64,000 bases of DNA from Clostridia bacterium. GTDB lineage: Bacteria > Bacillota > Clostridia > TANB77 > CAG-508. The notes beneath the pieces are model-generated. The model saw only the letters and a list, made by a program, of their open reading frames with translations. It did not search any database and was not told the DNA's origin. The DNA lies in assembly GCA_022793875.1 (NCBI GenBank), contig JAAWDR010000028.1, positions 23,544 to 87,543 of the forward strand. The letters run 5' to 3'. The translations under genes and the position numbers were made by a program. The first letter of the stretch is position 1, and each line of letters starts with the position of its first letter. Positions 6,323 through 28,091 of the stretch are shown one piece after another.

Positions 6323-6351
6323 ATTATAGCATTTTTTTGTATTAAAGTCAA
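6323..6351 (-). promoter_or_regulatory. sigma-A-type promoter for the 133-aa orphan gene
   Basis: Minus strand reads ttgact-17 nt-tataat. AAGAGGAG SD lies before the ATG at 6283. Confidence 0.55.
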
Positions 6352-6354
6352 ACT

Positions 6355-7050: not shown

Positions 7051-7073
7051 TTTTCTCTCCTTTTCTACATAAT

Positions 7074-8067
7074 TTATAATTTTAAGTTTGGCACTGCATT
7101 TAAATTCAAATCACTCTTTTCACCATTTATAAAATTATAATATCCAGCAGAACCTATCATAGCTGCATTATCAGTACACAACTTCATATCTGGCATATAA
7201 ACTTTTATACCTTTATCTTGTAATTTCATAAATTCATTTCTTATATAACTATTTGCTGAAACACCACCTGCTAATACCACTGTTTTAGTATCTATTTGTT
7301 TTATAGCTTTCATTGTATTTTCAATTAAAATCTCTGATACTGTTTTTTCAAAACTAGCACATAAATCAGCTTTATTAATATCAGGCATTTTGTGATGTAA
7401 ATTTATTACTGCTGTCTTTATTCCACTAAAACTAAAATCTAGATTTTCAAAATGTGTTTTAGGCAGTTCAATTGCATTAGGATTTCCCTCTTTTGCAAGT
7501 TTATCAATCTTAGGTCCTCCTGGATACCCCAAACCAACAACTCTTGCAACTTTATCAAATGCTTCCCCTATTGCATCATCTCTAGTTTTACCCAAAACTT
7601 CAAATTTTGTATAATCTTTTACATATACAAGTTGTGTATTTCCACCTGACATCATCACACATAAAAATGGTGGTTCAAGCTCTTTATATGTTATATAATT
7701 TGCAGCTATATGTCCTTGTATATGATTAACTCCAATTAATGGTTTATCTATTGCAAAACTTAAGGCTTTTGCATAAGAAAGGCCTACTAATAAAGCTCCT
7801 ACTAAACCTGGTCCATATGTTGGTGTTATTGAATCTATATCCTCAAAAGTAATATTTGCTTCTTCCAATGCTTTTTTTGTTACTCTTGAAATTGCTTCAA
7901 TATGATTTCTTGATGCAATTTCTGGCACTACTCCTCCATATTTTTCATGTATTGGTATTTGTGTATCTATTATATTTGATAATATTTCTCTTCCATTTTT
8001 TATTACTGCAACTGATGTTTCATCACAACTTGATTCTATTCCGAATAGTTATTATATCTTTTTTCAT
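7074..8067 (-). CDS. tsaD: tRNA N6-adenosine threonylcarbamoyltransferase TsaD, 5' end shifted by one extra C
   Basis: ORF 7074..7928 lacks the N-terminus. Upstream, the gene strand reads atg aaa aaa gat ata ata act att C gga ata gaa tca agt tgt gat gaa. Without the C (plus-strand G at 8043) this is [30 protein letters not shown]...[12 protein letters not shown]. Confidence 0.9.
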
Positions 8068-8077
8068 TTCTTCTCTT

Positions 8078-8211
8078 GGGAAAAGGGGACGTTCCTAAAA
8101 TCCCTCAAAAACGGGAATATGGGACACTCCTTAAAACTATAAATAATAAAAATATAAAGGAGTGTCCCATATTCCCGTTTTTGAGGGATTTTAGGAACGT
8201 CCCCTTTTCCC
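8078..8211. repeat. long perfect inverted repeat, family B (55-bp arms, 24-nt loop)
   Basis: The left arm is gggaaaaggggacgttcctaaaatccctcaaaaacgggaatatgggacactcctt (8078-8132). Its exact reverse complement lies at 8157-8211. The element sits between the M50 protease stop and the tsaD start. Confidence 0.9.
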
Positions 8212-8219
8212 TTTCCTTT

Positions 8220-8960
8220 CTATAATCCAAAAATTAAAGTTCCTAAACTTAAAATTCCTTTGCTTATTCCACTAATAGCTGGTGTAATAATTGTTCCTGC
8301 AACTCCTGTTATCCAAATTAATATAAATATAATATAAAATATTTGCTCATTATTTACAAAAAATTCTTTTGCTTTATATGGTAAAAATGGCATTATTATT
8401 TTTGAACCATCTAATGGTGGTAATGGTATTAAATTAAATACTCCAAGCCCTATATTTATCGATATTGTACTTGATACCAATAACAATATTACCCAACCAA
8501 CTGTTGATGTTAAAAATGTTGCACTTGCAAATTTATAAATTGCACAATATATTAATGTAAATATTATTGCTAATACAAAATTCATCAATGGTCCTGCTGC
8601 AGATACTATTGCTTCTCCTTTTTCCATAGACATTTTTCTTGTATAGTTTCTAGGATTTACTTCTACTGGTTTTCCCCATCCAAATCCTGCTACTAATAAC
8701 AATAAAGTTCCTATTGGGTCTAAATGTGCAAATGGATTTAAACTTAGTCTTCCTTGGCTTTTTGCTGTGTTATCGCCTAATTTGTATGCTGCATATCCAT
8801 GTGCAAATTCGTGAAATGTTATTGCTATTAACACTCCTGGTGCACTTAATAATAGTCCTATTAATCCTCCTGGATTTGTTGCATATTGCAATACTGCAAT
8901 TCCTGCCATTACTGCTACTATTATGTACATTGTTCTTTTATCAAATGAAAAATTAAACAT
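8220..8960 (-). CDS. site-2 protease (peptidase M50) family membrane metalloprotease
   Basis: 246 aa, multi-TM, with the HEFAHGYAA (HExxH) motif and a later NLIPLPPLDG motif. Confidence 0.8.
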   Translation of the reverse strand: MFNFSFDKRTMYIIVAVMAGIAVLQYATNPGGLIGLLLSAPGVLIAITFHEFAHGYAAYKLGDNTAKSQGRLSLNPFAHLDPIGTLLLLVAGFGWGKPVEVNPRNYTRKMSMEKGEAIVSAAGPLMNFVLAIIFTLIYCAIYKFASATFLTSTVGWVILLLVSSTISINIGLGVFNLIPLPPLDGSKIIMPFLPYKAKEFFVNNEQIFYIIFILIWITGVAGTIITPAISGISKGILSLGTLIFGL

Positions 8961-9029
8961 ATTTTTCTCCCTTCATTTGTTTTCAAATTCTATTATGAGA
9001 CATTTTTGACCTGTCCCAAATGTCTCATT

Positions 9030-9632
9030 TTATAATTCATCTGTCTTAAATGACAAATAACCTTCATATAGATAACTATTATCTATTCCCTTCATATATA
9101 CTTCTCTATCATCAACTTTATCAGTTAAGCCTTTTTTTAGTAATTCTTTAATTTCTGTGTCTTTAATAGGACTACGTTCCATTGCAAGTAAATAATCTGT
9201 TTTATCAATTTTACTCCAATCAATTACTAGATTTAGTTGTTTTTTTAAAATTAAGTCAAGCCATATTCTTGTACTTCTTCCATTTCCTTCTCTAAATGGA
9301 TGTGCAACATTCATTTCTACATATTTTTCAATGATTTCTTCATAGGTTGATTGTGGCATTTTCTCAATGTTTTTAACTGCTTCTTCTAGATATGCAATAG
9401 GTGTAAATATAAAGTTCCCTTTTGCTATATTTACTTTTCTTAAATCTCCTGCAAATTCATGTATTTTTTCAAATAAATATTTATGGATTTTTTTTAATGT
9501 TTCAAATGTTCCTGGTTCTAATGTATTTAGATATCCCTTTTCAAACATTTCTTTTGCAGATGTTTTACTAATTCTTTCTTCTCTTACTAGTTCTGCTGGG
9601 GCAGTAATATTTAATTTGTTTTCTAAAATCAT
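9030..9632 (-). CDS. Fic family protein (AMPylase-type), class III with C-terminal auto-inhibitory motif
   Basis: Fic motif HPFREGNGRSTR. C-terminal SYLYEG matches the S/T-x-x-x-E-G/N inhibitory helix. Start trimmed to the ATG at 9632 (AGGTGG SD). Confidence 0.8.
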   Translation of the reverse strand: MILENKLNITAPAELVREERISKTSAKEMFEKGYLNTLEPGTFETLKKIHKYLFEKIHEFAGDLRKVNIAKGNFIFTPIAYLEEAVKNIEKMPQSTYEEIIEKYVEMNVAHPFREGNGRSTRIWLDLILKKQLNLVIDWSKIDKTDYLLAMERSPIKDTEIKELLKKGLTDKVDDREVYMKGIDNSYLYEGYLSFKTDEL

Positions 9633-9688
9633 TCTTACCACCTTTCTTTATTTTTTCTTTTGTAATTATATATATTTCTCATAAACAT

Positions 9689-11971: not shown

Positions 11972-13248
<1,277 letters not shown>

Positions 13249-13308
13249 TTTCTCTCCTTTTTAATATAAATCATTATTTTCACTATCTAAGAATTCACAT
13301 ATAAAGAT

Positions 13309-13359: not shown

Positions 13360-14373
13360 TTATTCAAAATAATTCAACATCATTGCATCTTTAACTTTTT
13401 TCATAGTTTCTCTTGCAACTTTTCTTGCTCTCTCTGTGCCTTCAATTAAAATTTTGTCCACTTCTTCTGGATGAGCTTCATAATATGCTCTTTTTTCTCT
13501 TATTGGTCTTAGCTCTTCAATAATATTTTTTGCTAGTTGTTTTTTACAAGCAACACATCCACGTTTTCCTGCTTTACATTCTTCACATACTGCTTTTACA
13601 TCTTCTTTTGATGTAAATAAGTTGTGATAATATGCAACCATGCATACATCAGGATTTCCTAAATCATCTTTCTTTATACGGTTAGGGTCTGTTACTGCAC
13701 TCATTACTTTTTTTGTTATTTCTTCTTCACTGTCTGATAAGTATATTGCATTTCCTAGTGATTTTCCCATTTTTTCGTTTCCATCAAGTCCTTTTATTCT
13801 TTTTGCACTTGATAAAACTGCTTGTGGCTCTTTTAGTACTCCTTCTCCATATATACTATTGAATTTTCTTACTATTTCTCTACATTGTTCAATTAGTGGT
13901 AATTGATCTTCTCCTACTGGTACTAATTCTCCTTCAAATGTTGTTATATCTGCTGCTTGGCTTACTGGATATCCTAAAAATCCATATGTTACACTTTCTC
14001 CAAATAAGTCTTTCTTTTGAGCTATTTCTGTTTTTACTGTTGGATTTCTTTGTAATCTTGCTATTGTTACTAAATTTGAATAATATATTGTTAGTTCTGC
14101 TGTTTCTGGTATCATTGATTGTATATATATTGTTGTTTTATTTGGGTCTATTCCAACTGATAAATAGTCTATTGCTACTTCTCTTACATTTTTTCTTACT
14201 TTTTCTGGATTGTTAAAATTGTCTGTTAATGCTTGAACGTCTGCTATTAATATAAATGGGTCATATTCTGGATTTTCTTGTAATTCTAATCTCTTTTTTA
14301 ATGAACCAAAATAATGTCCTATATGTAATCTTCCTGTTGGTCTATCTCCTGTTAATATTCTTTTTCTTTTCAT
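13360..14373 (-). CDS. trpS: tryptophan--tRNA ligase with a C-terminal cysteine cluster
   Basis: 337 aa with GDRPTGRLHIGHYFG (HIGH) and KMGKSLGN (KMSKS). Also carries C-x18-C-x2-C-x6-C-x2-C (DVCMVAYYH...AVCEECKAGKRGCVACKK). Confidence 0.9.
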   Translation of the reverse strand: MKRKRILTGDRPTGRLHIGHYFGSLKKRLELQENPEYDPFILIADVQALTDNFNNPEKVRKNVREVAIDYLSVGIDPNKTTIYIQSMIPETAELTIYYSNLVTIARLQRNPTVKTEIAQKKDLFGESVTYGFLGYPVSQAADITTFEGELVPVGEDQLPLIEQCREIVRKFNSIYGEGVLKEPQAVLSSAKRIKGLDGNEKMGKSLGNAIYLSDSEEEITKKVMSAVTDPNRIKKDDLGNPDVCMVAYYHNLFTSKEDVKAVCEECKAGKRGCVACKKQLAKNIIEELRPIREKRAYYEAHPEEVDKILIEGTERARKVARETMKKVKDAMMLNYFE

Positions 14374-14520
14374 ATCGTATTACCTTTCTTTTATTTATTA
14401 TTTATGCATTGATAATTTTGATATATCTCCTTGAAATACGCTTAATTATTATATCATATGAAACCTAAAAAGTCCACAAAACAAATAAAATTTTCTTCAA
14501 TTTTATCTACAAAAAGGTTA

Positions 14521-14550
14521 CAAAAAGCCCTAGTGATTTCTCACTAGAGC
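14521..14550 (-). terminator. intrinsic terminator ending the five-gene operon
   Basis: Minus strand reads gctctagtga-gaaa-tcactagggc followed by ttttt, 27 nt after the stop at 14577. Confidence 0.7.
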
Positions 14551-14576
14551 TTTTGTCTTTAAAACTTTGTAAAATT

Positions 14577-15875
14577 TTATTTAATCTCTTCAAATGCTAT
14601 TTGCCAAAATACATAACATCCTTGTTTTTTCGCTTTCGAAGATTCTTCTCCTATAATTTTTTCAAATTCCTTATATTCAGAAGACTCTCTATCAAATTCA
14701 ACCATTTTGAATAATTTTTCAATTTTTCCTTTATTCATTTTATATAAAATATTACGATGTGTATTTGTCTCTTGCCTTTCATATCTCCTATTATAAACAA
14801 ATATTTTGTATGTTCTGCCAGGATATTCTACATAACATGACATATTATCAAACATTGTTTTATTAATCTTTTGAAGTTCTTCTACTCCAATTTCTGGTTG
14901 TATAGCCTTTACATAAATTCCATTATTTTTATATCTAATCTTCTTGCTGGTTGGAAAATCCTTACAATTATTATGTTCCATTTTTAAAAAAGCATAGAAA
15001 TTTCTCAAATAGAAATCACAAACTACAGGTATATCCTTTTCTTCTAAAAATATTGTTGCATTTAAACCTATATCTTGCACTTTATTAATCCTAATACATG
15101 GTTCTACACAACTCAAAGGTAACATCATAAAATTGTAAATTCTATTTACTAAAAAATCAGTGTCTTTAGGAACAACTTCATGAATTATTTCTTCCAATTC
15201 CCTTTCTATAAGAGAATATGTTACTTCTTCTACATCCAAATTATCTGTAACTGCATATATTTTTTGAATGTCGGAATAAGTTTTGGTTATAAGCATTATA
15301 GGATTGCTTTGTAAAAGTGAACTTTCATATATTTTCACTATTTTATTGCATACTTGCTCACTTATTTTTGGTTTTAATGATACTTCTAATATTCTGCCAA
15401 ATGCATATTCAGCATTATTCAATGTTTCTGATAAACTTTCAATATCAGGAATATATTTAATCGATGTTTTTAAATATATATTAGCTATTGAATCAGTTTG
15501 TCTTATACTATCATTTTGTTCATCCTTCCAACTTCTATAATCTTTCATAAGATTTTTAAACTCAGGATAGCATTTTTTAAAACACTCTATTAAAACTGGA
15601 TGAGAAACTTCATCTATTTCAAAAAATTCCTCTGGTACTACTTTAAAATTCAAATCTGAATTCACACTATAAAGTATGGAATCTTTTTCAACAAATACTG
15701 CTTGTTTTGGAATTTTTATTGATATTTTCTCCCACATTTCTTTAATCCGCCACTTCATAGCATCTTCCTGATATAATTCATTAAAATATTCTTTAAACAT
15801 ATCATTTATGACATCTTCTGCAAATCCTTCTTTGTGAACATACCATTTTCTTTCATTAATATTTAATAAAATCAT
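14577..15875 (-). CDS. hypothetical protein (432 aa), fifth gene of the operon
   Basis: Intact ORF with AAAGGAGAA SD, 26 nt after the upstream stop. I recognise no motif. Contains an in-frame CGG. Confidence 0.6.
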   Translation of the reverse strand: MILLNINERKWYVHKEGFAEDVINDMFKEYFNELYQEDAMKWRIKEMWEKISIKIPKQAVFVEKDSILYSVNSDLNFKVVPEEFFEIDEVSHPVLIECFKKCYPEFKNLMKDYRSWKDEQNDSIRQTDSIANIYLKTSIKYIPDIESLSETLNNAEYAFGRILEVSLKPKISEQVCNKIVKIYESSLLQSNPIMLITKTYSDIQKIYAVTDNLDVEEVTYSLIERELEEIIHEVVPKDTDFLVNRIYNFMMLPLSCVEPCIRINKVQDIGLNATIFLEEKDIPVVCDFYLRNFYAFLKMEHNNCKDFPTSKKIRYKNNGIYVKAIQPEIGVEELQKINKTMFDNMSCYVEYPGRTYKIFVYNRRYERQETNTHRNILYKMNKGKIEKLFKMVEFDRESSEYKEFEKIIGEESSKAKKQGCYVFWQIAFEEIK

Positions 15876-15901
15876 ATCATTCTCCTTTTCCTTTATTAGT
15901 T

Positions 15902-16765
15902 TTAAATTGCATCTCCTCCTGCTGTTACATAGTTTCCTGAATAAAAGAATTTTTCCATACAGTCACAATCCCTTCCTAAAGAATTTCTCAATGTTGTTCT
16001 GGCCAAATCATAATCATACAATGAAAATACGACTATGACTAAATCAGAAGAGTTTAACTTTGAAAGATATTTTAATGTCTTATAATCCAATTCTTTTAGT
16101 TCTAGAATCACTAAAAATTTCGAATCATAATTTCTTGAAAAAGATGAAAAATTTATAATCTGTTTGATGCGATTAATAACACTCAACAGATTTCTATCTC
16201 TTTCATTTCTTTCATTTATTCTTTTTAATGTTACAAGTGTTGTTTGATATTCATCATATTCTTGATGATTGTCATAAACCTTTTCTAATCCAATCATTAC
16301 ATCCTTTAAATAAAACTCAATATCATACTGTCTAGTAAAATTATCTCTTAAATACTTATAAAATATTGCTGCAATGTTATTATAAACATCTGATAATGCA
16401 GAAGAGCAATCTGCTTGTCCTGCAAAAATAAGATTTTCACTTACTTCTCGTAAATTATGACACAAATTATTAACAATAACATCAGAATTGATTCCAAAAA
16501 CTCCAATCATGTTAGTTGATGCTCTTCCTGATACAACTCTTTTAACACATCTTATTAATTCATTAGATGCATTATATTGTATTTCTTGAATATCTTCTTC
16601 GGAATCCTCGCTATGTTCTTGCAAATTTTCTTCTACTAAGATATCATTATTAGAACTGATATCTTTTTTCGGTCTTTCAAGAATTTCCTGATTTTCAGGA
16701 TTTTCCTGTTTCTTTTTTTCTTCTACAAAGTCACATTGAAACCGAATAACCCTCTTAATTTTCAT
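15902..16765 (-). CDS. hypothetical protein (287 aa) with an acidic N-terminal region, fourth gene of the operon
   Basis: Intact ORF with AAAGGAGC SD. I recognise no family. Confidence 0.6.
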   Translation of the reverse strand: MKIKRVIRFQCDFVEEKKKQENPENQEILERPKKDISSNNDILVEENLQEHSEDSEEDIQEIQYNASNELIRCVKRVVSGRASTNMIGVFGINSDVIVNNLCHNLREVSENLIFAGQADCSSALSDVYNNIAAIFYKYLRDNFTRQYDIEFYLKDVMIGLEKVYDNHQEYDEYQTTLVTLKRINERNERDRNLLSVINRIKQIINFSSFSRNYDSKFLVILELKELDYKTLKYLSKLNSSDLVIVVFSLYDYDLARTTLRNSLGRDCDCMEKFFYSGNYVTAGGDAI

Positions 16766-16791
16766 CTTTTTGCTCCTTTCATAAATTAAAT

Positions 16792-18168
16792 CTAGGAACC
16801 ATTACATAATAATAATTTTTTTGCTTTTTGTTTTATTCCCTTCTTAAAGTTTCCATTTTCAAAAATACTATAAAACATACTCCTAACTTCTAAAGTGTAT
16901 TTTTCTCTCAAATATTTTTGATTTCTCTGAAAGTCGAATTCACTTCTTGAAGCACTAATATATTCTGAAACTTCTTGTAAAACTTCTTCCAATTTAAGTT
17001 TAATATTAGTATCCACTCCAGCAATACAATTGTATTTTTGTCTGTTATTTAAAATATTTTTTGGCAAAGTTTTAAAAAAACTATATGATTTTAAATATTC
17101 TTCAATAACTGACATTTCAAAATTATTGCTTGTAGGATATGCACAAGCACCAAATCTATCCTTAATGAAATTCAGCCTTTTTTGCCTTATTTCTAAAGGA
17201 ATTTGATTTTCCATAATAGATGCAGGTGTTTCTAAAACTTGCTCATAACTTGCAACTCCTATGTCACTAAAATAGCCTTTTTCCAGATATTTTACCAAAT
17301 TTTGAAATTCCAGTTGGGTTTCACCAGGAAACCCAACTATGACTTCTGTTGAAATAATTAAATCTGGTCTTAATTCTTTTAATTTCTGAATCCTTTTATC
17401 TGTAAATTCAAATGATGGTCGGTTCATTTTTTTAAGAATTGTGTCAGAAACATGCTGAATATGCAACATTATTTCTACAATATTCTTATTTTGAGATATA
17501 ACAGAAATCATTTCATCTGTTAATCCTACTGGATGAAACCATCCAATAACATAATTACAATCTGGAAACTGTGTACAAATTTTCTGTAACAACTTAGGAA
17601 AGCTCGGCTTTCCATACAAATCAATTCCATAATCTGAAGTCTCCTGTGCTCCAGTAATATATATTGTTGTTTCTGTATCGTATAAATCTTCAACTTCTAG
17701 CAAAACATCTTCTATTGGCTTACTTTTATAATTTCCAACAATCAATGGGTACACACAGTATGAACATTTTTTCAAACATCCTTCTGAAACAATTACCCTA
17801 TTTTGAGGAACTATCTTTTCAAAGTGACAAATCTTGGACTTTTTGAAAAAGTTAATTAGTTCTTTAAAACTTTTAACTTCTATTCCAGGAATAGCTTCTA
17901 ATTCCTCTTTATTGATTGAAAGTAAACAACCTGTTACAATTACTTTTGCATCTGAACGGCTATTGGCTCTAACATCTGCAATAACCTGTACACTATACTT
18001 CTTTTTTTCTCCAAAAGCACATGTTTGAATAATAACAATATTTGCTATTGTATAATCACAAACAATTTCATAACTACCATTTTGCATAATGTAATTTAAT
18101 AGAACATTAGACCGTTCTATATCCATATGCATATCATTACACATTATAATAGCAATCTTTTTCTTCAT
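16792..18168 (-). CDS. radical SAM enzyme of the methylthiotransferase (MiaB/RimO-like) type; divergent, no recognisable TRAM domain
   Basis: It has a UPF0004-like N-terminal domain (IIMCND, IQTCAFG, VTGCL). The radical-SAM CxxxCxxC motif is present (EGCLKKCSYCVYP), followed by GFPGET. Start trimmed to MKKKIAII at 18168 (GGAG SD, 4 nt after the upstream stop). Confidence 0.75.
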   Translation of the reverse strand: MKKKIAIIMCNDMHMDIERSNVLLNYIMQNGSYEIVCDYTIANIVIIQTCAFGEKKKYSVQVIADVRANSRSDAKVIVTGCLLSINKEELEAIPGIEVKSFKELINFFKKSKICHFEKIVPQNRVIVSEGCLKKCSYCVYPLIVGNYKSKPIEDVLLEVEDLYDTETTIYITGAQETSDYGIDLYGKPSFPKLLQKICTQFPDCNYVIGWFHPVGLTDEMISVISQNKNIVEIMLHIQHVSDTILKKMNRPSFEFTDKRIQKLKELRPDLIISTEVIVGFPGETQLEFQNLVKYLEKGYFSDIGVASYEQVLETPASIMENQIPLEIRQKRLNFIKDRFGACAYPTSNNFEMSVIEEYLKSYSFFKTLPKNILNNRQKYNCIAGVDTNIKLKLEEVLQEVSEYISASRSEFDFQRNQKYLREKYTLEVRSMFYSIFENGNFKKGIKQKAKKLLLCNGS

Positions 18169-18172
18169 ATTT

Positions 18173-18727
18173 TTAGCTCCATTCCTTAAGATGTACTTCA
18201 GAAACATTATTCTGATAATATTCTGGTTTCTTTTTTGTACTATCAATATGTCCTAATGCTTTTTCGATAATTCCAAAGTTCATACATGATTTTCCTTTAA
18301 AACCAGATGTTTCAACATTAATCTTACCATCAGAATCGAAACTGATTATAGCTTTTCCTCCAGATTTTTTGTCCATCAGTTTGAGTTTACCTTCTTCAGC
18401 TGGATAAACTTTATATCCGTTTTTCTTAGCTTCAATCTTCAATTTTTCAATTGAATACTGTCTTAAAAGTTCACTTCCCTGATGTCCAATGAATCTTTCA
18501 ACATGACCTTCATAAAAGTCAGCATCTATATCATAAGTTCCACCTGTTTTAGCTTCAATTGCCACATCATATTTTCCTGGAAGCTTAATCACATGTTCTC
18601 TGGTTTGAGCACCATAATAGTACCGACAAGTTGTATTAGATTCTAAACTTAAGTTCATATTAGTAGCAGCCTGTTTCAATGCTTCTAAATCTTTAATTTC
18701 TGCTGTTATTCTTGTAAAATGGCTCAT
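18173..18727 (-). CDS. DUF1257 (Ycf35-like) - DUF2997 fusion protein
   Basis: The N-terminus MSHFTRITAEIKDLEALKQA resembles the characteristic DUF1257 start. The C-terminus GKINVETSGFKGKSCMNFGIIEKALG resembles DUF2997. The ATGA start overlaps the AAA+ gene's stop. Family assignment is from memory, not a search. Confidence 0.6.
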   Translation of the reverse strand: MSHFTRITAEIKDLEALKQAATNMNLSLESNTTCRYYYGAQTREHVIKLPGKYDVAIEAKTGGTYDIDADFYEGHVERFIGHQGSELLRQYSIEKLKIEAKKNGYKVYPAEEGKLKLMDKKSGGKAIISFDSDGKINVETSGFKGKSCMNFGIIEKALGHIDSTKKKPEYYQNNVSEVHLKEWS

Positions 18728-20304
18728 TTTTGCTCCTCCTTTTCAAATCGCATTACTCTTGAACCTTTTGTTTCAATTGGATTAGTTTCTATTTGAACCT
18801 TAGGGGCAACATTAGCATTTCTTATTCCATGAGTTATACTCCAATTTCTTAGAGAACTTACTGTATCACTCATAATCCCTTTTGCCATCGGATTAATCTT
18901 TGACATAGCAATTACCAAGTCATCTGTGGTATATGGCCTTTTTCCATCATTCCATGCATAAAACATTGAAGAAATAACACATTCCTCAATTTCTGCTCCA
19001 GTATATCCATCAGATACACTTGCAAGCTTTTCAATATCAAAGTCTTCTGCTTTCCTTTTCTTTTTCTCAATCTGAATCTTAAAGATTTCTTTTCTTTCTT
19101 CTTCACTTGGTAAATCAACGAAAAAGATTTCATCAAATCTACCTTTCCGCAAAAATTCTGGTGGCAAAGAAGAAATGTTGTTAGCAGTAGCAATTACATA
19201 TACAGGTACTTCTTTTTCCTGTAACCATGTAAGAATAGTCCCAAACATTCTTGAAGTCACACCTGAATCTGTTTTTCCACTACTTCCAACTCCAGATAAA
19301 CCTTTTTCAATCTCATCAATCCATAAAATAGCAGGTGCCATAGCTTCTGCTATTTCTAAAGCCTTTCTTGTTTTTGCCTCAGTATCACCTACCAAAGAGC
19401 CAAATAGTTTGCCTAAGTCTAACTTAAGTAATGGCTTTTTCCACATATTTGAAAGTGCTTTAGCAGCCAAACTTTTACCACATCCAGGAATTCCTACAAG
19501 CAATACACCTTTAGGATATGGCAATCCATAATTCTGTGCTTCTTCTGAATATGCCGAAAACCTTTCTTCTGCATAACTTATGAACTCTTTCATCCCTCCA
19601 ACTGTTTCCAATGTTTCTTTTGATTGCATATATTCAAGCAAACCGTCTTTACAAATAATTTGCCTTTTAACATTATTTATAATATCAACATCAAAAGTTC
19701 TTGTTTTTGAAAATGATGTTGCAAATGCATTTTCAGCTTCAAACATTGTAAGTCCAAGAGCTGCATCAATAGCATCATCAATATTCTCAGGAATATTAAC
19801 ATTGTATCCCTTGCAAATTCCTATTGCAATTTCTCTTAAATCGTCTTTTTTAGGCAAATCTAAATTTGTTATAATTACCTCATGTTCAAGTTCAGGTGGT
19901 GTATCAAATTTACTGCTTATAAAAAGATAGATTATTCCTTGTGTTTTAGCACTACTGAATACATCTTTTGCTGTCCGCCAAACAGAAGGAGATTTAATAT
20001 ATGGATGAAAATCTAACATACAATAAATTGTGTTCTCTCCATAATTTAAGCCTTGTGTTAATGCTTCTTCATCAGGTGAAATATTAATATCCATATCTTT
20101 TTGAGATATGTCTTTGCCATTTTTATCAAAAAGATATTGGATAACACCTTTTGTTTCTGACCATACATAAAACTGCATTTTTACACTTTGAGCTATTCTA
20201 CAACATTCTTCAATGCCCCGTTCTTCTTCAGAAGTGTTCAAAACAATGGCTGGATATCCTGCATATATATAGTCCTTTAATTGTAGAGAAGTTTGTGCAC
20301 TCAT
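18724..20304 (-). CDS. Ycf46-like AAA+ ATPase (N-terminal degenerate domain plus C-terminal AAA module)
   Basis: 526 aa. Walker A is GIPGCGKS, Walker B is ILWIDEIEK, sensor-1 is ATANN, and the Arg region is FLRKGRFDEIFFVD. The N-terminus (YPAIVLNTSEEERG) resembles Ycf46-type proteins. Confidence 0.8.
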   Translation of the reverse strand: MSAQTSLQLKDYIYAGYPAIVLNTSEEERGIEECCRIAQSVKMQFYVWSETKGVIQYLFDKNGKDISQKDMDINISPDEEALTQGLNYGENTIYCMLDFHPYIKSPSVWRTAKDVFSSAKTQGIIYLFISSKFDTPPELEHEVIITNLDLPKKDDLREIAIGICKGYNVNIPENIDDAIDAALGLTMFEAENAFATSFSKTRTFDVDIINNVKRQIICKDGLLEYMQSKETLETVGGMKEFISYAEERFSAYSEEAQNYGLPYPKGVLLVGIPGCGKSLAAKALSNMWKKPLLKLDLGKLFGSLVGDTEAKTRKALEIAEAMAPAILWIDEIEKGLSGVGSSGKTDSGVTSRMFGTILTWLQEKEVPVYVIATANNISSLPPEFLRKGRFDEIFFVDLPSEEERKEIFKIQIEKKKRKAEDFDIEKLASVSDGYTGAEIEECVISSMFYAWNDGKRPYTTDDLVIAMSKINPMAKGIMSDTVSSLRNWSITHGIRNANVAPKVQIETNPIETKGSRVMRFEKEEQK

Positions 20305-20343
20305 TTTTTTAAGTCTCCTTTCAAAATTTTATTATTAGTCTTA

Positions 20344-20361
20344 TTGCAATAATTATTGCAA
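20344..20361. promoter_or_regulatory. perfect 18-bp palindrome in the operon 5' leader (candidate operator or RNA hairpin)
   Basis: ttgcaataattattgcaa, located between the -10 box and the ATG at 20304. Confidence 0.4.
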
Positions 20362-20383
20362 CTGCTACAAAATATTTTTATAG

Positions 20384-20412
20384 ATTATATCATAGTGTAC
20401 ATAAAAAATCAA
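20384..20412 (-). promoter_or_regulatory. sigma-A-type promoter of the five-gene operon
   Basis: Minus strand reads ttgatt-17 nt-tataat, about 80 nt upstream of the ATG. AAAGGAGA SD lies before the start. Confidence 0.6.
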
Positions 20413-20439
20413 CAATTTTAAATTTATTAAAATTGTTGA
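20409..20439 (-). terminator. 13-bp-arm AT-rich hairpin: probable terminator of the MFS gene, overlapping the -35 box (possible operator)
   Basis: tcaacaattttaa-attta-ttaaaattgttga, followed by tttttt on the minus strand, 14 nt after the MFS stop. Confidence 0.45.
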
Positions 20440-20452
20440 CACTAAAAGTTCA

Positions 20453-21730
20453 TTAAATATCAAATTCTATATCTTCTTTTTTATACTCACCTGGCTTTAA
20501 CCCAGTTCTAGTTTTCATATAACTTATCAAGGCAACTGTTACAATACCAAAAATAATACCTGATAATATTAAACTATGTGCTGTATTAGTAATTGTTAAA
20601 ATATATGAACCTAAAAATCCTATTATCATTCTAAAAAGGTTTCTACTTATTCCGTTAATAGAATATATTTTTGGAAGAATTGATGGGTTTGTAAAATTAC
20701 TTAAATACCTTGTCATTAAAATTCCAAAACTTCCTTTATTTGAATTTATTACACAATAGAATATCATTATCCATATCATTATAATATTAGGTGCCATATT
20801 ACTAATTCCAAATATTCCTGATAACAAAATCATTATAGCTGTTGTAACAGCTAATGCTGACAACGTTTTATTTCTAAACATTTTATGAAGTGCTAATTGA
20901 TATTTAGAACCAACACCTGATGCAATTCCAACTATTGCTGCTATAATTGCATTCCAAGTTGCTGATATCCCTATATCCTCTAACAAACTTGTTCTATATG
21001 TGCTAACTAAGCAAAATGTTCCCCACATAATTCCTGAATATATTATTAAACTTCTTAATCTATTTGATTTTAAAATAAATTTGAAAGAGTCTTTTAAATC
21101 TACTATATATTCACTTATTTTAAATTCATTTTTTATTTTACTTGTATTATCTATTTCTTGGAATCCTACTGATAATATGGTTGCAATTAATGCTATTATT
21201 GTTGCTCCTATAATTGGTATATACGGATTTAGTGTATATAAAAATCCTGAACATACAGCTGTGATTGCATTTATATAATAATATTTCTCATTTCCTCTTC
21301 CTTCTATTTTCGAAAAGATTTCTCCTTTAATTTTTACTTCTGGAATTGACATATTTAAAAGTGTTGTATCTGACACATCTTTTATTGAAAAACATAGTGC
21401 ACTAAAAAATTCTGCTACTATTAAGTTTTGTAGATTTGTGGCTGTCATAATTAGTACTAAATATATTACATTAAATACATTTCCTAATATTGTACTTCTT
21501 CTGGTTCCTATTTTATCAATTAATATATTTGCTGGTATTTGTAATATTACCATAAACATAGCATAAAATGATGATTTTAGTACTACGTCTGATGCTGATA
21601 TATTCTTTACTTGTGTTAAAAATAAAAATTCTATTGCATAGTAAAATAGTATATCCATTGATATTGCTCTATACATTGAATATAACTTCATGTTTTGCTT
21701 TCTTTTTTGTGTATTTACATCTGTTTTCAT
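20453..21730 (-). CDS. MFS transporter
   Basis: 425 aa, about 12 hydrophobic segments. Motif-A-like LIDKIGTRRS. Confidence 0.75.
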   Translation of the reverse strand: MKTDVNTQKRKQNMKLYSMYRAISMDILFYYAIEFLFLTQVKNISASDVVLKSSFYAMFMVILQIPANILIDKIGTRRSTILGNVFNVIYLVLIMTATNLQNLIVAEFFSALCFSIKDVSDTTLLNMSIPEVKIKGEIFSKIEGRGNEKYYYINAITAVCSGFLYTLNPYIPIIGATIIALIATILSVGFQEIDNTSKIKNEFKISEYIVDLKDSFKFILKSNRLRSLIIYSGIMWGTFCLVSTYRTSLLEDIGISATWNAIIAAIVGIASGVGSKYQLALHKMFRNKTLSALAVTTAIMILLSGIFGISNMAPNIIMIWIMIFYCVINSNKGSFGILMTRYLSNFTNPSILPKIYSINGISRNLFRMIIGFLGSYILTITNTAHSLILSGIIFGIVTVALISYMKTRTGLKPGEYKKEDIEFDI

Positions 21731-21924: not shown

Positions 21925-21970
21925 ATAATCTAACCAAAAAAACTATTTGTTTTTAAGAGGAGGAAACAAT

Positions 21971-23302
21971 ATGATGACAACATTATTCTTAGGTCAAAAC
22001 GGAGTTTTATCAACTCAATGTGTAGAATACTACAACTCTATCAAAGATTATGCTAATCGGTACAGTTTAACCAATACCATTATAGCATTAAATTTGGCAG
22101 CAGAACTTCACAATGGACAATTTAGAGATACTGGATTACCTTATGTAATACATCCTTTAGAAATAACTCATTACTTGATTCTGTTAAAAGTTCGGCATGC
22201 TATTTTTGATATGAATTTGAATATTTTGCATGATGAAAATTTAGCAGAAACTCAAACTAATTTAGATCTTGACATTTTGCTTGCTTCGAGTCTATTGCAT
22301 GATACAATTGAAGATTGCAAATCTAAATTGCCTAATAAAGGTAAAGAATTTATTGATGTTTATCATCTCCATCAAGACATTTTCAAATATGTAACTATCT
22401 TAACAAAAGACAAAACTGCTCCTGGTTATACTTTAGATGGTTACTTTGAATCTATTTGTCAATATTGGCAAACACTAATTGTAAAACTTGTTGATAGAGC
22501 AAATAACTGCTCAACAATAAATGCTTTTTCAAATACTCGGATGGAAAAATATGTGAAAGAAACAAAAAAATATTTCTACTCAATGGCATCAACCTTAAAA
22601 AATTCTTTCCCCACGTTTTCTAGACAGACAACCATTCTGAAATATTTATTTGTATCAATCTGTGAAACAGTTGCATCAGCTTTAGACATTAAAGACATTA
22701 TCAGTGAAGAATCATATGATAAAACTTACTATTTTGTAAAAGGCTTAGCAATTGGTAAAGGTTCTATGCAAAATACGCTCAAAGCACTTCCACTCTCTAA
22801 AGAATACTATAAAGATTTAACTCGAAAGAGTGGTGACCCTTTTATCATTCATCCTTTAAGAGTATGTTCATATCTCATATCTTTAAAGATTGATGATGAT
22901 ATTGTCTGCTCAGCTGCATTATTGCATGAAATTATCAAAAAATGTCATTTAGAGTATAATGGTATTGAGATTGTTACTAAGTATCATTTGGACTTCTCAG
23001 TATTAGAATTAGTGAGATTGGTATCAAACAACGAGCATTATCCGCTGGATTTGTATTATGAAGCATTAAAACATAACCCTAAAGCTATGCTTTTAAAACT
23101 TTCTAATAGGGCTCATACCTGTACTACTCTAATTGATTCATCATCTGATGAAATTCGTTCTTATGTTGAAGAATGTGAAAATTTCATTTATCCTCTTTGT
23201 GATTATGGAATTGCTCACTATCCTGAATATGCTTACAGCATTCAGGTAATGTATTATCACATTTCTTCTGTCTGTAATATTGTTAAAAGTTTGCGGTCTT
23301 AA
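21971..23302 (+). CDS. tandem RelA/SpoT-type HD (small alarmone hydrolase-like) domain protein; second domain degenerate
   Basis: Domain 1 has HNGQFRDTGLPYVIHPLEI, LLHDTIEDC and KLVDRANNC. Domain 2 has RKSGDPFIIHPLRV and ALLHEIIKKC (HD replaced by HE, ED lost), plus KLSNRAHTC. Start trimmed to the ATG after AGGAGGA. Confidence 0.7.
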   Translation: MMTTLFLGQNGVLSTQCVEYYNSIKDYANRYSLTNTIIALNLAAELHNGQFRDTGLPYVIHPLEITHYLILLKVRHAIFDMNLNILHDENLAETQTNLDLDILLASSLLHDTIEDCKSKLPNKGKEFIDVYHLHQDIFKYVTILTKDKTAPGYTLDGYFESICQYWQTLIVKLVDRANNCSTINAFSNTRMEKYVKETKKYFYSMASTLKNSFPTFSRQTTILKYLFVSICETVASALDIKDIISEESYDKTYYFVKGLAIGKGSMQNTLKALPLSKEYYKDLTRKSGDPFIIHPLRVCSYLISLKIDDDIVCSAALLHEIIKKCHLEYNGIEIVTKYHLDFSVLELVRLVSNNEHYPLDLYYEALKHNPKAMLLKLSNRAHTCTTLIDSSSDEIRSYVEECENFIYPLCDYGIAHYPEYAYSIQVMYYHISSVCNIVKSLRS

Positions 23303-26636: not shown

Positions 26637-26667
26637 TGTGACAAAAAAGAACGCCTCTCTTGTCACA
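26637..26667. repeat. palindromic element, family A, overlapping the miaB stop codon
   Basis: tgtgacaaaaaagaacgcctctcttgtcaca. The miaB ...atg tga lies inside the right arm. Confidence 0.7.
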
Positions 26668-28091
26668 TCTTTCCTTTCAAATACCACATATGTTCAGATA
26701 CTATTTTTAAGTCTACCATATTTCCAATCAAACTTTTATCGCCTTCAAAAATAACAACTTTATTGCTATCTGTTCTACCTGTAAGCATCTGTTCATTATT
26801 TTTGCTAGTTCCTTCTACTAATACTTTCTCTATTATTCCAATATATTTTTGATTATTTTCTTCAATTTGACTTTCTACTAATGCCTTTAATTTGTCAAAT
26901 CTTTTATGTTTTATTTCTTCTGGAACTTGATTTTCCATTCTATCCCCTGGTGTTCCTACTCTTCTTGAATATATAAACATATATACTTGTTCAAATTTTA
27001 CTTTTTCTACAACATCTAAAGTGTCTTCAAATTCTTCATCAGTTTCTCCTGGAAATCCTACTATTATATCTGTTGATAATGTTAAATTTGGTATTTTAGT
27101 TTTCATTTTTTTTACTAATTCTAAGTATTGTTCTTTTGTATATTTTCTGTTCATTTCTTTTAGGATTTTTGTGTTTCCTGATTGTAATGGTAAATGTACT
27201 AATTTACACACTTTATCACATTCTGCTATTGCTTCTATTACATCATCTGTAAAATCTTTTGGATGTGGTGATACAAATCTTATTCTTTCTATTCCTTCTA
27301 TTTTGTTTATTTCTTTTAATAATGTTGCAAATGAATCCACTCCTTCATATTGTTCAAATTCTATGCCTTTTTCACGTTCTACTCTTAAATATGAATTTAC
27401 ATTTTGACCGAAGTAATGTAACTTCTTTATATCCTTGTTTTGCTATTTCTTGTACTTCTTCTATTATTGCTCTTGGTTCTCTGCTTCTTTCTCTTCCTCT
27501 AACATATGGAACTATGCAATAACTACAAAAATTATTGCATCCATTCATTATTGTTACTGATGCTTTTATATTACTATCTCTTTTTATTGGTAAGTCTTCA
27601 TATATTTTTCCATCTATATCTAATATATCTTCTTGTCTTTTTCTCTCTTTTATCGCTTTATATAAATCTTCTGGAAGTTTGTGTAATGTATGTGTTCCAA
27701 ATATTATATCTGTATATGGATAACTCATTTTTATTTTATCTGTGATATGTTTTTCTTGCATCATACATCCACCGATTGCAATTATTGTTCCTTTTTGTTC
27801 TTTTAATTTTTTTAGTTCTCCTAATTTTCCAAACAATTTATCTTCTGCATTTTCTCTTACACAACATGTATTAAAAATTGCTAAATCTATTTCATTTTGA
27901 TTTTCTGTTTTTGTGTACCCCATTTCTTCTAACATTCCACATATTTTTTCTGAATCATTTTCATTTAATTGGCATCCCATTGTTAGTATACTATACTTTT
28001 GTTTTTTGTTTTGATTTATTTCTTTTACTTTATTTATGTATTCTTTTTGCTCTTCTATTTCTTTTTTTGTTTCCAATTTATTTTCCTCCAA
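26663..28091 (-). CDS. miaB: tRNA-2-methylthio-N6-dimethylallyladenosine synthase MiaB, split as written by one extra C
   Basis: ORF 27372..28091 (CQLNENDSE, GCNNFCSYCIVPYVRG) and ORF 26663..27340 together make one gene. The gene strand reads gtt aca tta ctt C ggt caa aat gta aat tca tat. Without the C (plus-strand G at 27410) this is EVTLLGQNVNSYLRVEREKGIEFEQYEGVDSFATLL... Confidence 0.9.

Follow-up and report, generated by a model that had tools for sequence, protein, structure and literature searches.

We found that five genes (g1 to g5), encoded on the minus strand of a 64,000-nt stretch of Clostridia DNA (hereafter, the window), form a densely packed operon in which a Ycf46-type AAA+ ATPase, a DUF1257-DUF2997 fusion protein, and a putative RimO-like radical-SAM enzyme are followed by two accessory proteins. 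The cassette is conserved across genomes. The suggestion in a preliminary description of this DNA that the operon is a candidate undescribed system still stands, since no description was found in the domain and defence libraries, and no published account of an AAA+/radical-SAM operon was found in the literature searched. Our tentative interpretation is that its products make up a self-sufficient machine, powered by ATP, for modifying proteins through radical-SAM chemistry, with inter-genomic conflict or stress response as its most likely physiological role.

A single strong promoter lies at one end of the block (14577-20304) and a single strong terminator at the other (Table 1). The g1/g2 junction is a 4-nt ATGA overlap, and the spacings of g2/g3, g3/g4, and g4/g5 are 4, 26, and 26 nt, with GGAG ahead of each junction, so that the coordinates agree with the junctions and Shine-Dalgarno sequences (SDs) described previously. 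For g3, we took the ATG at 18168 as the start, which has an SD and agrees with the start in all homologues; the ORF list also holds a longer form with a TTG start at 18246. The promoter (TTGATT-17-TATAAT) ranks second among the promoter matches in the region, and most related loci carry a TTGACA / TGATATAAT-type promoter (TGnTATAAT) at an unchanged distance from g1. Promoter-like matches inside the operon show no excess (46 found versus 57.5 expected from shuffles). Given one promoter, one terminator, and overlapping or closely spaced genes, the layout bears out the single operon claimed earlier and points to co-expression of g1 to g5, whose products probably form a complex.

Table 1. Features of the operon (positions in the window).
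Feature	Position	Strand	Length	Description
g1	18724-20304	minus	526 aa	
g2	18173-18727	minus	184 aa	
g3	16792-18168	minus	458 aa	
g4	15902-16765	minus	287 aa	
g5	14577-15875	minus	432 aa	
Sigma-A promoter	20384-20412	minus		TTGATT, 17-nt spacer, extended -10 TGnTATAAT; score 10/12, TG upstream
5' leader hairpin	20343-20362	minus		8-bp stem, then A/U-rich TAATAATAA tract and SD
Intrinsic terminator	14520-14556	minus		11-16 bp hairpin, GAAA loop, then U run

Both ends of the transcript are predicted to be structured. A leader hairpin of 7-10 bp at an equal position, with differing stem sequences, was obtained in all 12 leaders folded (12 loci), with z-scores that are negative throughout (-0.3 to -5.7), and it matched no Rfam family. 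The terminator has a free energy of -20.7 kcal/mol (z = -4.8), equalled by none of 200 shuffles, and is followed by the trpS promoter at 14476-14448.

Frameshifts in the nearby core genes miaB and obg of this assembly could suggest that g1 to g5 are no functional unit and merely reflect chance adjacency or decay. This is extremely improbable and is refuted by the conservation seen: none of the five ORFs is disrupted, each aligns with its homologues across the full length, gene order is kept down to ~50% protein identity in differing genomic contexts, and catalytic residues are invariant.

The domains originally assigned to g1, g2, and g3 are recovered by Pfam and NCBIfam profiles. In g1, described as a Ycf46-like AAA+ ATPase with a degenerate N-terminal half, the C-terminal half forms an AAA module of the classical clade with its lid (Pfam AAA, E 7.7e-28, and AAA_lid_3, E 8.9e-7; residues 267-463), and the N-terminal ~230 aa are non-ATPase, with no Pfam match for residues 1-230. 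The top PDB matches are Cdc48/p97 D2 domains (E 1e-52 to 1e-54). Conservation is at least 90% at Walker A, Walker B, sensor 1, and the Arg fingers; g1 carries the full catalytic motif set of an active classical-clade AAA+ hexamer. An aromatic residue, typical of the pore loop in processive unfoldases, is missing from that of g1 (LVG), which argues against the proposed machine. The likeness to Ycf46 extends over the full length and refers to phage (phrog_8638, E 1.4e-123) and cyanobacterial plasmid homologues (33-42% identity).

The second protein fuses Ycf35/DUF1257 (residues 1-~112), with an invariant MSHF N-terminus, to DUF2997 (~125-171), which contains an invariant G-x-x-C. The MSH N-terminus with which g2 begins is a Ycf35 hallmark (PMC13060386). 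DUF2997 scores 38.8 bits in Pfam; DUF1257 scores 21.2 bits, slightly below the cut-off of 22.2, and the fusion call is upheld by its detection in 15 of 19 g2 orthologues (best E 7e-8). No solved structure was found for g2 by sequence match.

The third protein combines UPF0004 and Radical_SAM (Pfam) and shares with RimO and MiaB the N-terminal UPF0004 domain, the three cysteines for an auxiliary 4Fe-4S cluster, and a radical-SAM core with CxxxCxxC. Both Fe-S cysteine triads are retained, as had been noted, with C10/C50/C81 at least 90% conserved and C131/C135/C138 invariant. The label "MiaB-like" given at first should read "RimO-like", because among solved structures RimO (T. maritima, 4jc0; E 7.6e-42) is far closer than MiaB (E 1.4e-19). 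RimO methylthiolates an Asp of ribosomal protein S12. The scores remain below the NCBIfam cut-offs (family, 203.9 versus 251; RimO, 200 versus 357). As described before, g3 departs from both enzymes in having no TRAM domain (Pfam); in its place is a family-specific C-terminal domain of ~120 aa with conserved motifs such as IAGVDTxxK and no Pfam or PDB match, and one g3 subfamily has no tail whatsoever. We therefore regard g3, on profile and alignment evidence, as a putative RimO-like methylthiotransferase with a novel conserved C-terminal domain, whose gene always follows those of the AAA+ and DUF1257-DUF2997 proteins.

Alternatively, g3 could act on RNA, as a specialised tRNA/rRNA methylthiotransferase with its tail as RNA binder, g1/g2 supplying electrons or rebuilding the sacrificial auxiliary Fe-S cluster, and g4/g5 as scaffolds. 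Most methylthiotransferase subfamilies act on tRNA A37 (PMC2952846), a conserved cyanobacterial gene cluster joins DUF2997 and Ycf35 to the 4Fe-4S ferredoxin Fed7 (PMC4284462), and radical-SAM/Fe-S proteins adjoin the module in four plasmid lineages. In addition, g4 resembles the ring of Elp456, partner of the radical-SAM tRNA modifier Elp3 (probability 0.77-0.97, with TM only 0.2-0.3), and the canonical miaB, elsewhere in the window, is frameshifted. Nevertheless, we consider this role unlikely: RimO is a much nearer relative of g3 than is any enzyme acting on tRNA, the g3 tail has no detectable RNA-binding domain, and the tags, disordered linkers, and fast accessory turnover described below would be left unexplained.

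The co-occurrence across genomes that the preliminary description proposed to check is indeed found. The g1-g2-g3 core is inherited as a block: it is contiguous in about 36 loci, every one of them in uncultured Clostridia of the gut or rumen. Among them g3 never occurs apart from g1-g2, and adjoining genes overlap or are separated by only a few nt. The proteins downstream are less constant; they are exchangeable and fast-evolving, and many share an N-terminal tag with a disordered linker behind it. Across matched loci, identity to the window is 50-89% for the core, 22-57% for g4, and 33-59% for g5, and coiled-coil and other accessory families are found at other loci. The g4 family is almost as widespread as the core, and g5 is optional, being present in only 13 of ~40 loci and missing from a close relative (L004/L016).

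Neither g4 nor g5 matched anything in Pfam, NCBIfam, PADLOC, or PHROGs. The claim that both resemble nothing known holds for g5 only, since the g4 model revealed a P-loop NTPase fold by Foldseek. This protein consists of a basic N-terminal tag (MKIKRVIRF), an acidic disordered linker of ~50 residues, and the P-loop fold, consistent with the AF2 pLDDT, which stays below 50 up to residue 61 and is high from there to residue 287. The best Foldseek match is RdrA (8fnt_E, E 1e-4, probability 1.0), followed by CED-4, NRC4, BrxC, and Elp456, and Walker A is dead (GVFGINSD). Thus, g4 is predicted from its model to be a degenerate P-loop NTPase of the STAND/AAA type. The g5 model is confident (pLDDT 88.5, pTM 0.80), its best Foldseek E-values are 0.16 (PDB) and 0.058 (BFVD), and its profile found nothing among PDB sequences. 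A search of 1.84 billion representatives turned up no more than 22 clusters, and g5 is a true orphan with a confidently predicted fold; its invariant residues are H92, C98, C102, and C347.

The tag, in the form (R/K)(R/K/Q)-I-x-F, recurs on families C1, C8, C9, C16, C78, and C123; apart from C78 and C123, none of these is related to C1. The regular expression matches 29/47 proteins of the tag families and 36/370 background ORFs, a contrast whose enrichment p-value is inflated because the families were chosen after inspection. Since tagged C16 proteins co-occur with tail-less g3 variants (L038, L212), the g3 tail cannot be the sole tag receptor. Two further observations count against the proposed machine: the tag alignment of the g4 family contains no fixed Asp or other evident target residue, and g5 and several other accessory families carry no tag.

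In the machine that we tentatively propose, g1 with its fixed adaptor g2 would bind the basic tag and engage the disordered linker of cassette proteins, the clients being the g4 pseudo-ATPases here and coiled-coil and other families elsewhere. Subsequently, g3 would methylthiolate a protein (+46 Da), which could be the tagged client itself, the DUF2997 domain encoded just upstream (at its Gly/Cys loop), or a foreign protein presented by clients. As a lineage-specific add-on, g5 may provide a metal or Fe-S site through its His/Cys3 cluster. The handling of tagged clients is modelled on the AAA ATPase Pvc15, which acts on disordered 50-70-aa N-terminal signals of downstream-encoded cargo (PMC11495950). 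Like g1, Pvc15 pairs one active AAA domain with an N-terminal part that is inactive, and the variable downstream proteins, whose disordered N-terminal signal is required by the ATPase, recall the tagged accessory proteins. Unlike g1, Pvc15 has tandem AAA domains, and, unlike the operon, the published descriptions of Pvc systems consulted include no radical-SAM enzyme. A g1 homologue (42% identity) lies within a contractile-injection locus in Treponema; no sheath, tube, baseplate, or spike genes are among the scanned operon neighbours. The resemblance to Pvc15 is one of logic only.

A somewhat doubtful possibility, itself compatible with a protein-modifying machine, is that the cassette serves in anti-phage or anti-plasmid conflict. 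Here the g1-g2-g3 core would execute and the variable g4, g5, and other proteins would sense or decoy invaders; once activated, the system would methylthiolate a component of the phage or of translation, and growth would stop. The narrow range favours such a role (27 cassette loci in ~26 of 185,579 species genomes, all gut or rumen Clostridia), as do accessory genes whose divergence outpaces that of the core two- to threefold and which are exchanged in situ, even at the common mutS position (type I in L017, type II in L027). So do g4 paralogues expanded to 1-3 per locus, with a fold nearest RdrA, CED-4, NRC4, and BrxC, the two cassettes in one MAG (RUG770), and the wider AAA/DUF module, mostly on phages, one satellite phage, and megaplasmids. 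However, in lytic phages this module adjoins replication genes, and the operon encodes no recognisable nuclease, protease, NADase, or pore-type effector. PADLOC returned only generic IetA/TRIP13 matches, all to the g1 AAA domain. The relation to IetAS (IteAS) is limited to this generic AAA module (PADLOC E 7.5e-22; NCBIfam IteA, 65 bits against an equivalog cut-off of 510), and the IetS protease partner is absent.

Codon usage and flanks bear on the same question, and on the idea that the block is an acquired island. Both CGG usage (7/72 Arg codons versus 11/521 in the background; Fisher p = 0.003) and GC3 (0.18 versus 0.12) depart from the background, so that the bias reported previously is real, if modest, and adds to the case for conflict. 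Against both ideas, the flanks across loci are housekeeping genes (lysS, obg, trpS, mutS, frr, rplU, lepA), with no defence islands or integrases among them and no mobility genes around the block. The island idea has thin support from the sequence: every CGG codon of g1 and g2 falls on an invariant Arg column, and three other species have the cassette near mutS as well. In the window, the neighbours are trpS, an MFS transporter, a tandem HD_4 protein, and mutS. The MFS and tandem-HD genes, placed together with the block at first, are not conserved partners at other loci.

The HD neighbour also enters a further explanation, in which the operon would resemble the ycf46 operon of cyanobacteria as a chaperone module for stress or dormancy: g1 and g2 would remodel complexes of the stressed host, with the radical-SAM and downstream genes as loose passengers. 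In Synechococcus 7942, (p)ppGpp and severe oxidative stress induce the three-gene ycf46 operon, whose expression anticorrelates with that of ribosomal genes (bioRxiv 10.1101/2025.07.21.665879). A tandem HD protein of RelA/SpoT type adjoins our operon divergently, and the AAA/DUF module mostly occurs without a radical-SAM enzyme (such a neighbour was found for AAA+ relatives in 2/80 metagenome loci and in no phages), so the AAA+ ATPase needs no such partner, a point that also weighs against the protein-modifying machine. We consider this explanation improbable, as g3 accompanies g1-g2 with coupled junctions in 36/36 loci, the HD gene is not kept elsewhere, and the tagged, fast-evolving partners are unaccounted for.

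Outside this clade, the AAA+/DUF1257/DUF2997 module is found in phages, plasmids, and cyanobacteria, in accordance with the earlier statement that the two small domains are usual Ycf46-type neighbours. In the Ycf46/Ycf35/DUF2997 module of cyanobacteria, plastids, and phages, DUF1257 and DUF2997 are separate, whereas they are fused here; our operon further adds a methylthiotransferase and tagged accessory proteins and is chromosomal, in anaerobic gut Clostridia. A close arrangement is AAA+ - DUF1257 - DUF2997 - (HhH) - NrdG-like on Paenibacillus and Paenarthrobacter plasmids, which shares the first three components and the radical-SAM slot. No g4, g5, or tags were seen in these cassettes, which are annotated by domain names only and for which no publication was found in the literature searched. 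In the B. cereus plasmid cassette, the NrdG-like gene is upstream, and on a Treponema plasmid it immediately precedes the AAA+ gene, with no DUF1257/DUF2997 annotated. These enzymes (~200 aa, Fer4_12 type) score 117-119 bits against TIGR02491 in three of four cases and 74 in Paenarthrobacter (cut-off 126). By sequence they are activase-like, unlike the methylthiotransferase g3, and their resemblance to the protein-acting activases of glycyl-radical enzymes speaks for the proposed protein-modifying machine and argues against the RNA-directed role considered above.

Judged from its sequence, the operon is a co-inherited and tightly packed combination of an AAA+ ATPase of catalytically intact type (g1) and a putative methylthiotransferase-type enzyme (g3), joined by a fixed, adaptor-like fusion protein (g2) and accompanied by exchangeable, fast-evolving partners that are often tagged at the N terminus. 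The preliminary description had proposed a single compact operon with one promoter and one terminator, and this was confirmed by ORF calling, inspection of the junctions, promoter scoring and hairpin folding. In the window (G+C ~27%, coding mainly on the minus strand), the five genes follow one another through an ATGA overlap and then gaps of 4, 26 and 26 nt, with GGAG at each junction. For g3, the ORF lister begins the frame at TTG 18246; the ATG at 18168 carries a Shine-Dalgarno sequence (SD) and agrees with the starts of all homologues. The promoter upstream of g1 is among the best matches in the region, and most related loci carry a TTGACA / TGATATAAT promoter at an unchanged distance from g1. 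Promoter-like sites within the operon were no more frequent than in shuffled sequence.

Coordinates of the operon and of compared features (window positions unless another locus is named)
Feature	Coordinates	Strand	Remarks
recG ORF	3692-5374		seems short at N-terminus
tsaD ORF	7074-7928		seems short at N-terminus
Fic-family gene	9030-9641	-
obg	11972-13300	-	frameshifted near 5' end
trpS	13360-14373		flank of five-gene block
Terminator hairpin	14520-14556		-20.7 kcal/mol, z = -4.8
g5	14577-15875	-	orphan
g4	15902-16765	-	predicted pseudo-NTPase
g3	16792-18168	-	RimO-like radical-SAM enzyme
g2	18173-18727	-	DUF1257/Ycf35-DUF2997 fusion
g1	18724-20304	-	AAA+ ATPase
g1 leader hairpin	20343-20362	-	7-10 bp stem, ~25-40 nt upstream of SD (range over 12 loci folded)
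Promoter	20412-20384		TTGATT-17-TGnTATAAT
MFS transporter gene	20453-21730		other flank of five-gene block
Tandem HD_4 gene	21947-23302	+	divergent neighbour
Canonical miaB	26663-28091	-	beside mutS, split into two ORFs
L009, g5 homologue P0017	3048-4373		~45% identity
L011, Fic-family gene	4762-5262		type II Clostridial cassette
L130, Fic-family gene	8638-9444		Manganitrophus plasmid
L212, metK	1485-2594		two genes upstream of cassette
L126, NrdG-like gene and g1 homologue	6369-8524		Treponema succinifaciens pTRESU01
L129, AAA+ - DUF1257 - DUF2997 - (HhH) - NrdG-like cassette	4995-7862		Paenibacillus polymyxa plasmid
L131, same kind of cassette	4785-8453		Paenarthrobacter plasmid
L127, same kind of cassette	4068-7877		Bacillus cereus plasmid

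The leaders of g1 are too divergent to be aligned for covariation analysis and were therefore folded one by one (the window and its named equivalents L001, L004, L011, L017, L021, L023, L024, L027-L029 and L040). A hairpin was present in 12 of 12, its position being kept while the stem sequences differ, and it is followed by a TAATAATAA-like A/U tract. Rfam matches to the g1 leader, sought for a known riboswitch or sRNA, were at chance level only, and no family fits; the hairpin is a candidate mRNA stabiliser or could be a regulatory element.

The MFS transporter gene and the tandem-HD gene, which had been named together with the block, were rejected as parts of the system, since neither is conserved beside the cassette (the g1-g2-g3 core plus accessory genes) in other loci. 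The latter gene encodes two tandem RelA/SpoT-type HD_4 hydrolase domains and contains four CGG codons. Its location is suggestive, given that the cyanobacterial three-gene ycf46 operon is stress- and (p)ppGpp-induced (bioRxiv 10.1101/2025.07.21.665879), yet it is not a conserved neighbour of the cassette elsewhere. That the present operon is itself a stress chaperone seems quite improbable to us. An alternative genetic code behind the CGG bias was ruled out: the CGG codons of g1 and g2 align with and encode invariant Arg, and thus the genetic code is standard.

The reading of g2 as a DUF1257/Ycf35-like domain fused to DUF2997 was borne out by Pfam. Against PF06868 (DUF1257), g2 itself scores 21.2 bits at a gathering threshold of 22.2, and the domain is matched by 15 of its 19 orthologues (best E 7e-8); against PF11211 (DUF2997), it scores 38.8 bits at a cut-off of 24.1, with matches in 18 of 19 orthologues. 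The g2 N-terminus, MSHF, is invariant, and an MSH N-terminus has been reported for essentially all Ycf35 proteins (PMC13060386). Across phyla, the DUF2997 part retains a single motif, DG...G-x-x-C, which is invariant.

A Pfam search placed a classical AAA domain with its lid at residues 267-463 of g1 and found no recognisable domain in residues 1-230; the closest solved relatives are Cdc48/p97 D2 domains. Walker A (GIPGCGKS), Walker B (LWIDEIEK), sensor 1 and the Arg fingers (RKGRFDE) are conserved across 28 orthologues, and the pore loop (LVG) lacks an aromatic residue. The predicted architecture is of the Ycf46 type: ~500 aa, of which the N-terminal half is no ATPase domain and is followed by one active-type classical AAA domain plus lid. 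As a putative Ycf46 orthologue, g1 was compared with cyanobacterial plasmid homologues, to which its identity is 33-42% over 78-94% of the query, and the phage family phrog_8638 is matched over the full length (E 1.4e-123). The genomic pairing also agrees: g2 lies directly downstream of g1, and g1 homologues are likewise paired with DUF1257 and DUF2997 in phages and plasmids, so that the earlier assignment to a Ycf46-type AAA+ protein beside these domains held in both architecture and neighbours. The IetA/TRIP13 defence models match g1 through the AAA domain only, and the NCBIfam IteA model reaches 65 bits against a cut-off of 510. A single metagenome gene call in the cluster of the L001 g1/g2 pair (P0227, 698 aa) joins g1 and g2, probably through a frameshift or a miscalled gene where the two overlap by ATGA.

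Beyond the host clade, homologues that match g1 over its full length and neighbour DUF1257 and DUF2997 lie beside replication genes in lytic phages of Rhizobium and Pseudomonas, and such modules are also found in many marine viral contigs and in cyanobacterial and other plasmids; one predicted viral contig carries a fused g2-like gene and no radical-SAM enzyme. Of 37 metagenome loci whose flanks reach 2.5 kb or more, 16 have DUF2997, 10 have DUF1257 and 7 have both. A radical-SAM neighbour appeared in only two loci of the best 80 metagenomic g1 homologues, and the idea that the AAA module always has a radical-SAM partner was therefore rejected. Since the AAA/DUF1257/DUF2997 trio is widely spread and radical-SAM neighbours are rare, the trio is the widespread core. 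The cyanobacterial genes for DUF2997 and Ycf35 form a cluster with that of the ferredoxin Fed7 (PMC4284462).

A ~200-aa Fer4_12 NrdG-like radical-SAM protein accompanies the module on plasmids of Paenibacillus polymyxa, Paenarthrobacter and Bacillus cereus; its gene follows DUF2997 in the first two and lies upstream of the AAA+ gene in B. cereus. At an NrdG activase cut-off of 126, this protein scores 117-119 bits in three of four lineages and 74 in Paenarthrobacter. On the Treponema plasmid (L126), an NrdG-like gene directly precedes the g1 homologue (42% identity, 95% coverage), with no DUF1257 or DUF2997 annotated, and the pair lies inside a contractile-injection locus (VgrG/Pvc8, GPD hub, baseplate V). 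We found no literature description of the plasmid NrdG-like cassettes; one of their hosts is cultivable, and so these cassettes may offer a tractable way to study the module. By this comparison, a radical-SAM partner has been recruited on at least two occasions, and the two classes that supplied it are unrelated: one resembles protein-acting activases and the other is closest to a protein-modifying enzyme.

The second class is that of g3. Its UPF0004 domain (PF00919, E 6.1e-9) keeps C10, C50 and C81 at 90% conservation or above in 23 family members, and the CxxxCxxC cysteines C131, C135 and C138 of its radical-SAM core (PF04055, E 1.6e-15) are invariant. In MiaB/RimO methylthiotransferases, the three N-terminal UPF0004 cysteines are ligands of an auxiliary 4Fe-4S cluster. 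Both Cys triads are thus common to g3 and these enzymes, whereas g3 is without their C-terminal TRAM domain: PF01938 gave no match in the whole protein at E up to 0.1 or in 21 isolated tails at E up to 1, while the canonical MiaB of the same window, 8 kb away, served as a positive control and matched at E 1.1e-10. Because methylthiotransferases are defined by three domains, TRAM included (PMC2952846), g3 lies by definition outside the canonical enzymes. In place of TRAM it has a tail of ~120 aa with its own conserved motifs (Y..IAGVDT..K and YT.E) and no Pfam or PDB match; searches gave no support for a TRAM or PqqD/RRE-like nature of this tail. The cysteine motifs and the replacement of TRAM by a conserved tail thus stood as first described, and the label "MiaB-like" did not, since g3 is by far closer to RimO (E 7.6e-42) than to MiaB (1.4e-19). 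It also falls below the curated NCBIfam cut-offs (203.9 against 251 for TIGR00089; 200.3 against 357 for the RimO model TIGR01125). Methylthiotransferases would thereby gain a sixth type, without TRAM and probably targeting protein. That the operon serves RNA modification together with Fe-S maintenance is, in our judgement, unlikely. No literature linking methylthiotransferases with such an operon was found.

The g3 family is larger than those of g4 and g5: the best 120 of 980 matches at E <= 1e-20 are all without TRAM and mostly full-length, with identity down to 45%. A scan of 185,579 species genomes placed it in 27 loci of ~26 MAGs, with one further, unrelated match at 28% identity. All hosts are uncultured gut or rumen Clostridia, e.g., Clostridium sp. 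CAG:245 and Hadza gut and roe-deer rumen MAGs, and g3 was not found in viral contigs. For g4, a word-seeded search gave 22 clusters; for g5, 18 clusters were found among 5.8 billion proteins and 22 by an exhaustive profile search of 1.84 billion representatives.

To define accessory gene sets, we called and clustered the ORFs in all loci. The core g1-g2-g3 is contiguous in 36 loci, most of which hold one to three paralogous g4-family proteins. In type I (13 loci, the window among them), g4 in one or two copies is combined with g5; in type II (9 loci), g4 is combined with small helical proteins and a ~420-aa coiled-coil protein; type III (3 loci) carries four to five paralogues of another family, and the remaining loci hold further combinations. 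Co-occurrence in other genomes is therefore real for the core and partial for g5, which is missing even from a close relative (L004/L016, g1 80% identical). That the genes form no functional unit is extremely improbable. A g5 homologue also stands alone on a 4.7-kb contig (L009), beside a SpoIIID-like gene; the 3 kb upstream of it contain no core gene. One MAG, RUG770, has two type III cassettes at separate loci (L032 and L035), each with three to five paralogues of a single accessory family located between g2 and g3 and also after g3. Fic-family genes were noticed a few kb or less from the AAA/DUF module three times, in contexts unrelated to one another, which may be chance, and the metK gene (S-adenosylmethionine synthetase) near the L212 cassette, whose g3 variant is tail-less, may reflect coincidence or a local SAM supply.

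The accessory proteins diverge faster than the core. Identity to the window proteins is 50-89% for g1 and g3, and in the same loci 22-57% for g4 and 33-59% for g5. Both g4 and g5 had been described as matchless, which remains so for g5 in structure and profile searches and no longer for g4, whose predicted model has a P-loop NTPase fold. No sequence family matched g4, and neither the g4 nor the g5 profile found anything among PDB sequences. In the AlphaFold model of g4, residues 1-61 are disordered and residues 62-287 confidently folded; Foldseek relates the folded part to RdrA (E 1.1e-4, probability 1.0) and to CED-4, NRC4 and BrxC (probability 0.98-0.99), with Elp456 among the closest, at modest TM-scores (<= 0.44). 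The Walker A site reads GVFGINSD (family consensus hIGVFGxNSD, no Lys or Ser/Thr), and canonical GxxxxGK[ST] is present in no family member; the site being degenerate, g4 is a predicted pseudo-NTPase. The g5 model is confident (pLDDT 88.5), and its fold appears to be without a relative in PDB (best E 0.16) or BFVD (best E 0.058). Internal duplication of g5, or homology to g2, g4 or the accessory families C6, C8 and C9, was rejected (hhalign probabilities all < 2%). Its invariant residues are H92, C98, C102 and C347.

These observations bear on whether the operon is a conflict or defence system. Such a role is favoured by the narrow distribution, the turnover of accessory genes, the likeness of the pseudo-ATPases to STAND proteins and the association of the module with mobile elements; however, the neighbourhoods are of housekeeping type, PADLOC returned nothing and the module is carried by lytic phages, and we regard this explanation as rather unlikely. 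Cassette flanks vary by species and are mostly housekeeping genes; the near-mutS position is common to three other species, with differing accessory sets. Searches of g2-g5 against anti-phage models (PADLOC 2.0, NCBIfam IteA) gave no match, and the system belongs to no defence family. PADLOC, NCBIfam and PHROGs returned domain names and nothing more for the operon proteins, no source names any of the five, and the papers found to mention DUF1257 (five) and DUF2997 (three) concern no such system. We therefore rate the operon as outside every described kind of system, with a candidate function only.

The accessory proteins often carry an N-terminal tag. The first ten residues of g4, MKIKRVIRFQ, are the most conserved stretch of its N-terminal region, and the family shares a basic (R/K)(R/K/Q)-I-x-(F/hydrophobic) motif within the first ~20 residues (e.g., MKIKRVIRF, MARRRQIIF, FSGRKIR, MPRQII), usually followed by an acidic or polar stretch. 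The tag recurs on C8 (coiled-coil), C9 and C16 and on two remote relatives of g4, C78 and C123, and is absent from g5; none was seen in phage loci carrying the AAA/DUF module. A regular expression for the tag matches 29 of 47 proteins of tagged families and 36 of the 370 remaining ORFs of these loci, counts that are illustrative only, since the families were picked after the motif had been seen. A fixed modification site was rejected, as no invariant Asp, Glu or Cys follows the tag. In L038 and L212, tagged C16 proteins adjoin tail-less g3 variants, and therefore the g3 tail is not the sole possible receptor; this weakens its candidacy, and g1 or g2 would be better candidates.

We suggest that g1, together with g2, would engage the tag and disordered linker of partner proteins, and that g3 would then methylthiolate a protein, which could be a client, a foreign target or DUF2997 at its Gly/Cys loop. 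Pvc15 sets the precedent: it acts on cargo that is encoded downstream and bears disordered N-terminal signals of 50-70 aa (PMC11495950). The likeness to this eCIS cargo loading lies only in the logic of a tag followed by a disordered linker, and none of the scanned neighbours at the window locus, which are housekeeping, transporter or cell-surface genes, is a sheath, tube or baseplate gene. Drawn from sequence features and analogy, this joint reading is possible, and we hold it tentatively. We consider it rather doubtful that the operon represents a new protein-processing class, in which tag and linker would steer diversifying cassette clients to an engine of Ycf46-type AAA+ protein and Ycf35-DUF2997, with which a TRAM-less RimO-like enzyme is coupled. 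If true, methylthiolation of a protein other than ribosomal protein S12 would be a first, and so would a mechanistic handle on Ycf46/Ycf35/DUF2997 in cyanobacteria, plastids and phages, as a partner of protein-directed radical-SAM chemistry. To our knowledge, few conserved reading frames of plastids and cyanobacteria besides Ycf46 and Ycf35 still lack a known mechanism, and the compact operon ties their module to an enzyme of predictable chemistry (+46 Da), a direct experimental entry. The tagged, fast-turnover accessories point to a new conflict system of Clostridia that are abundant in the human gut and the rumen, or else to a new AAA+ client-delivery logic.

Several core genes of the window contain indels; each of the five genes of the operon is intact. 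The canonical miaB (UPF0004, radical SAM and TRAM) is split by one extra C near 27410 (ACA TTA CTT [C]GG TCA..., expected TLLGQNVNSY), and in obg the N-terminal Obg-fold residues are in frame and the start region is not. The miaB and obg frameshifts suggest assembly indel errors or real decay, which for miaB would mean a real pseudogene.
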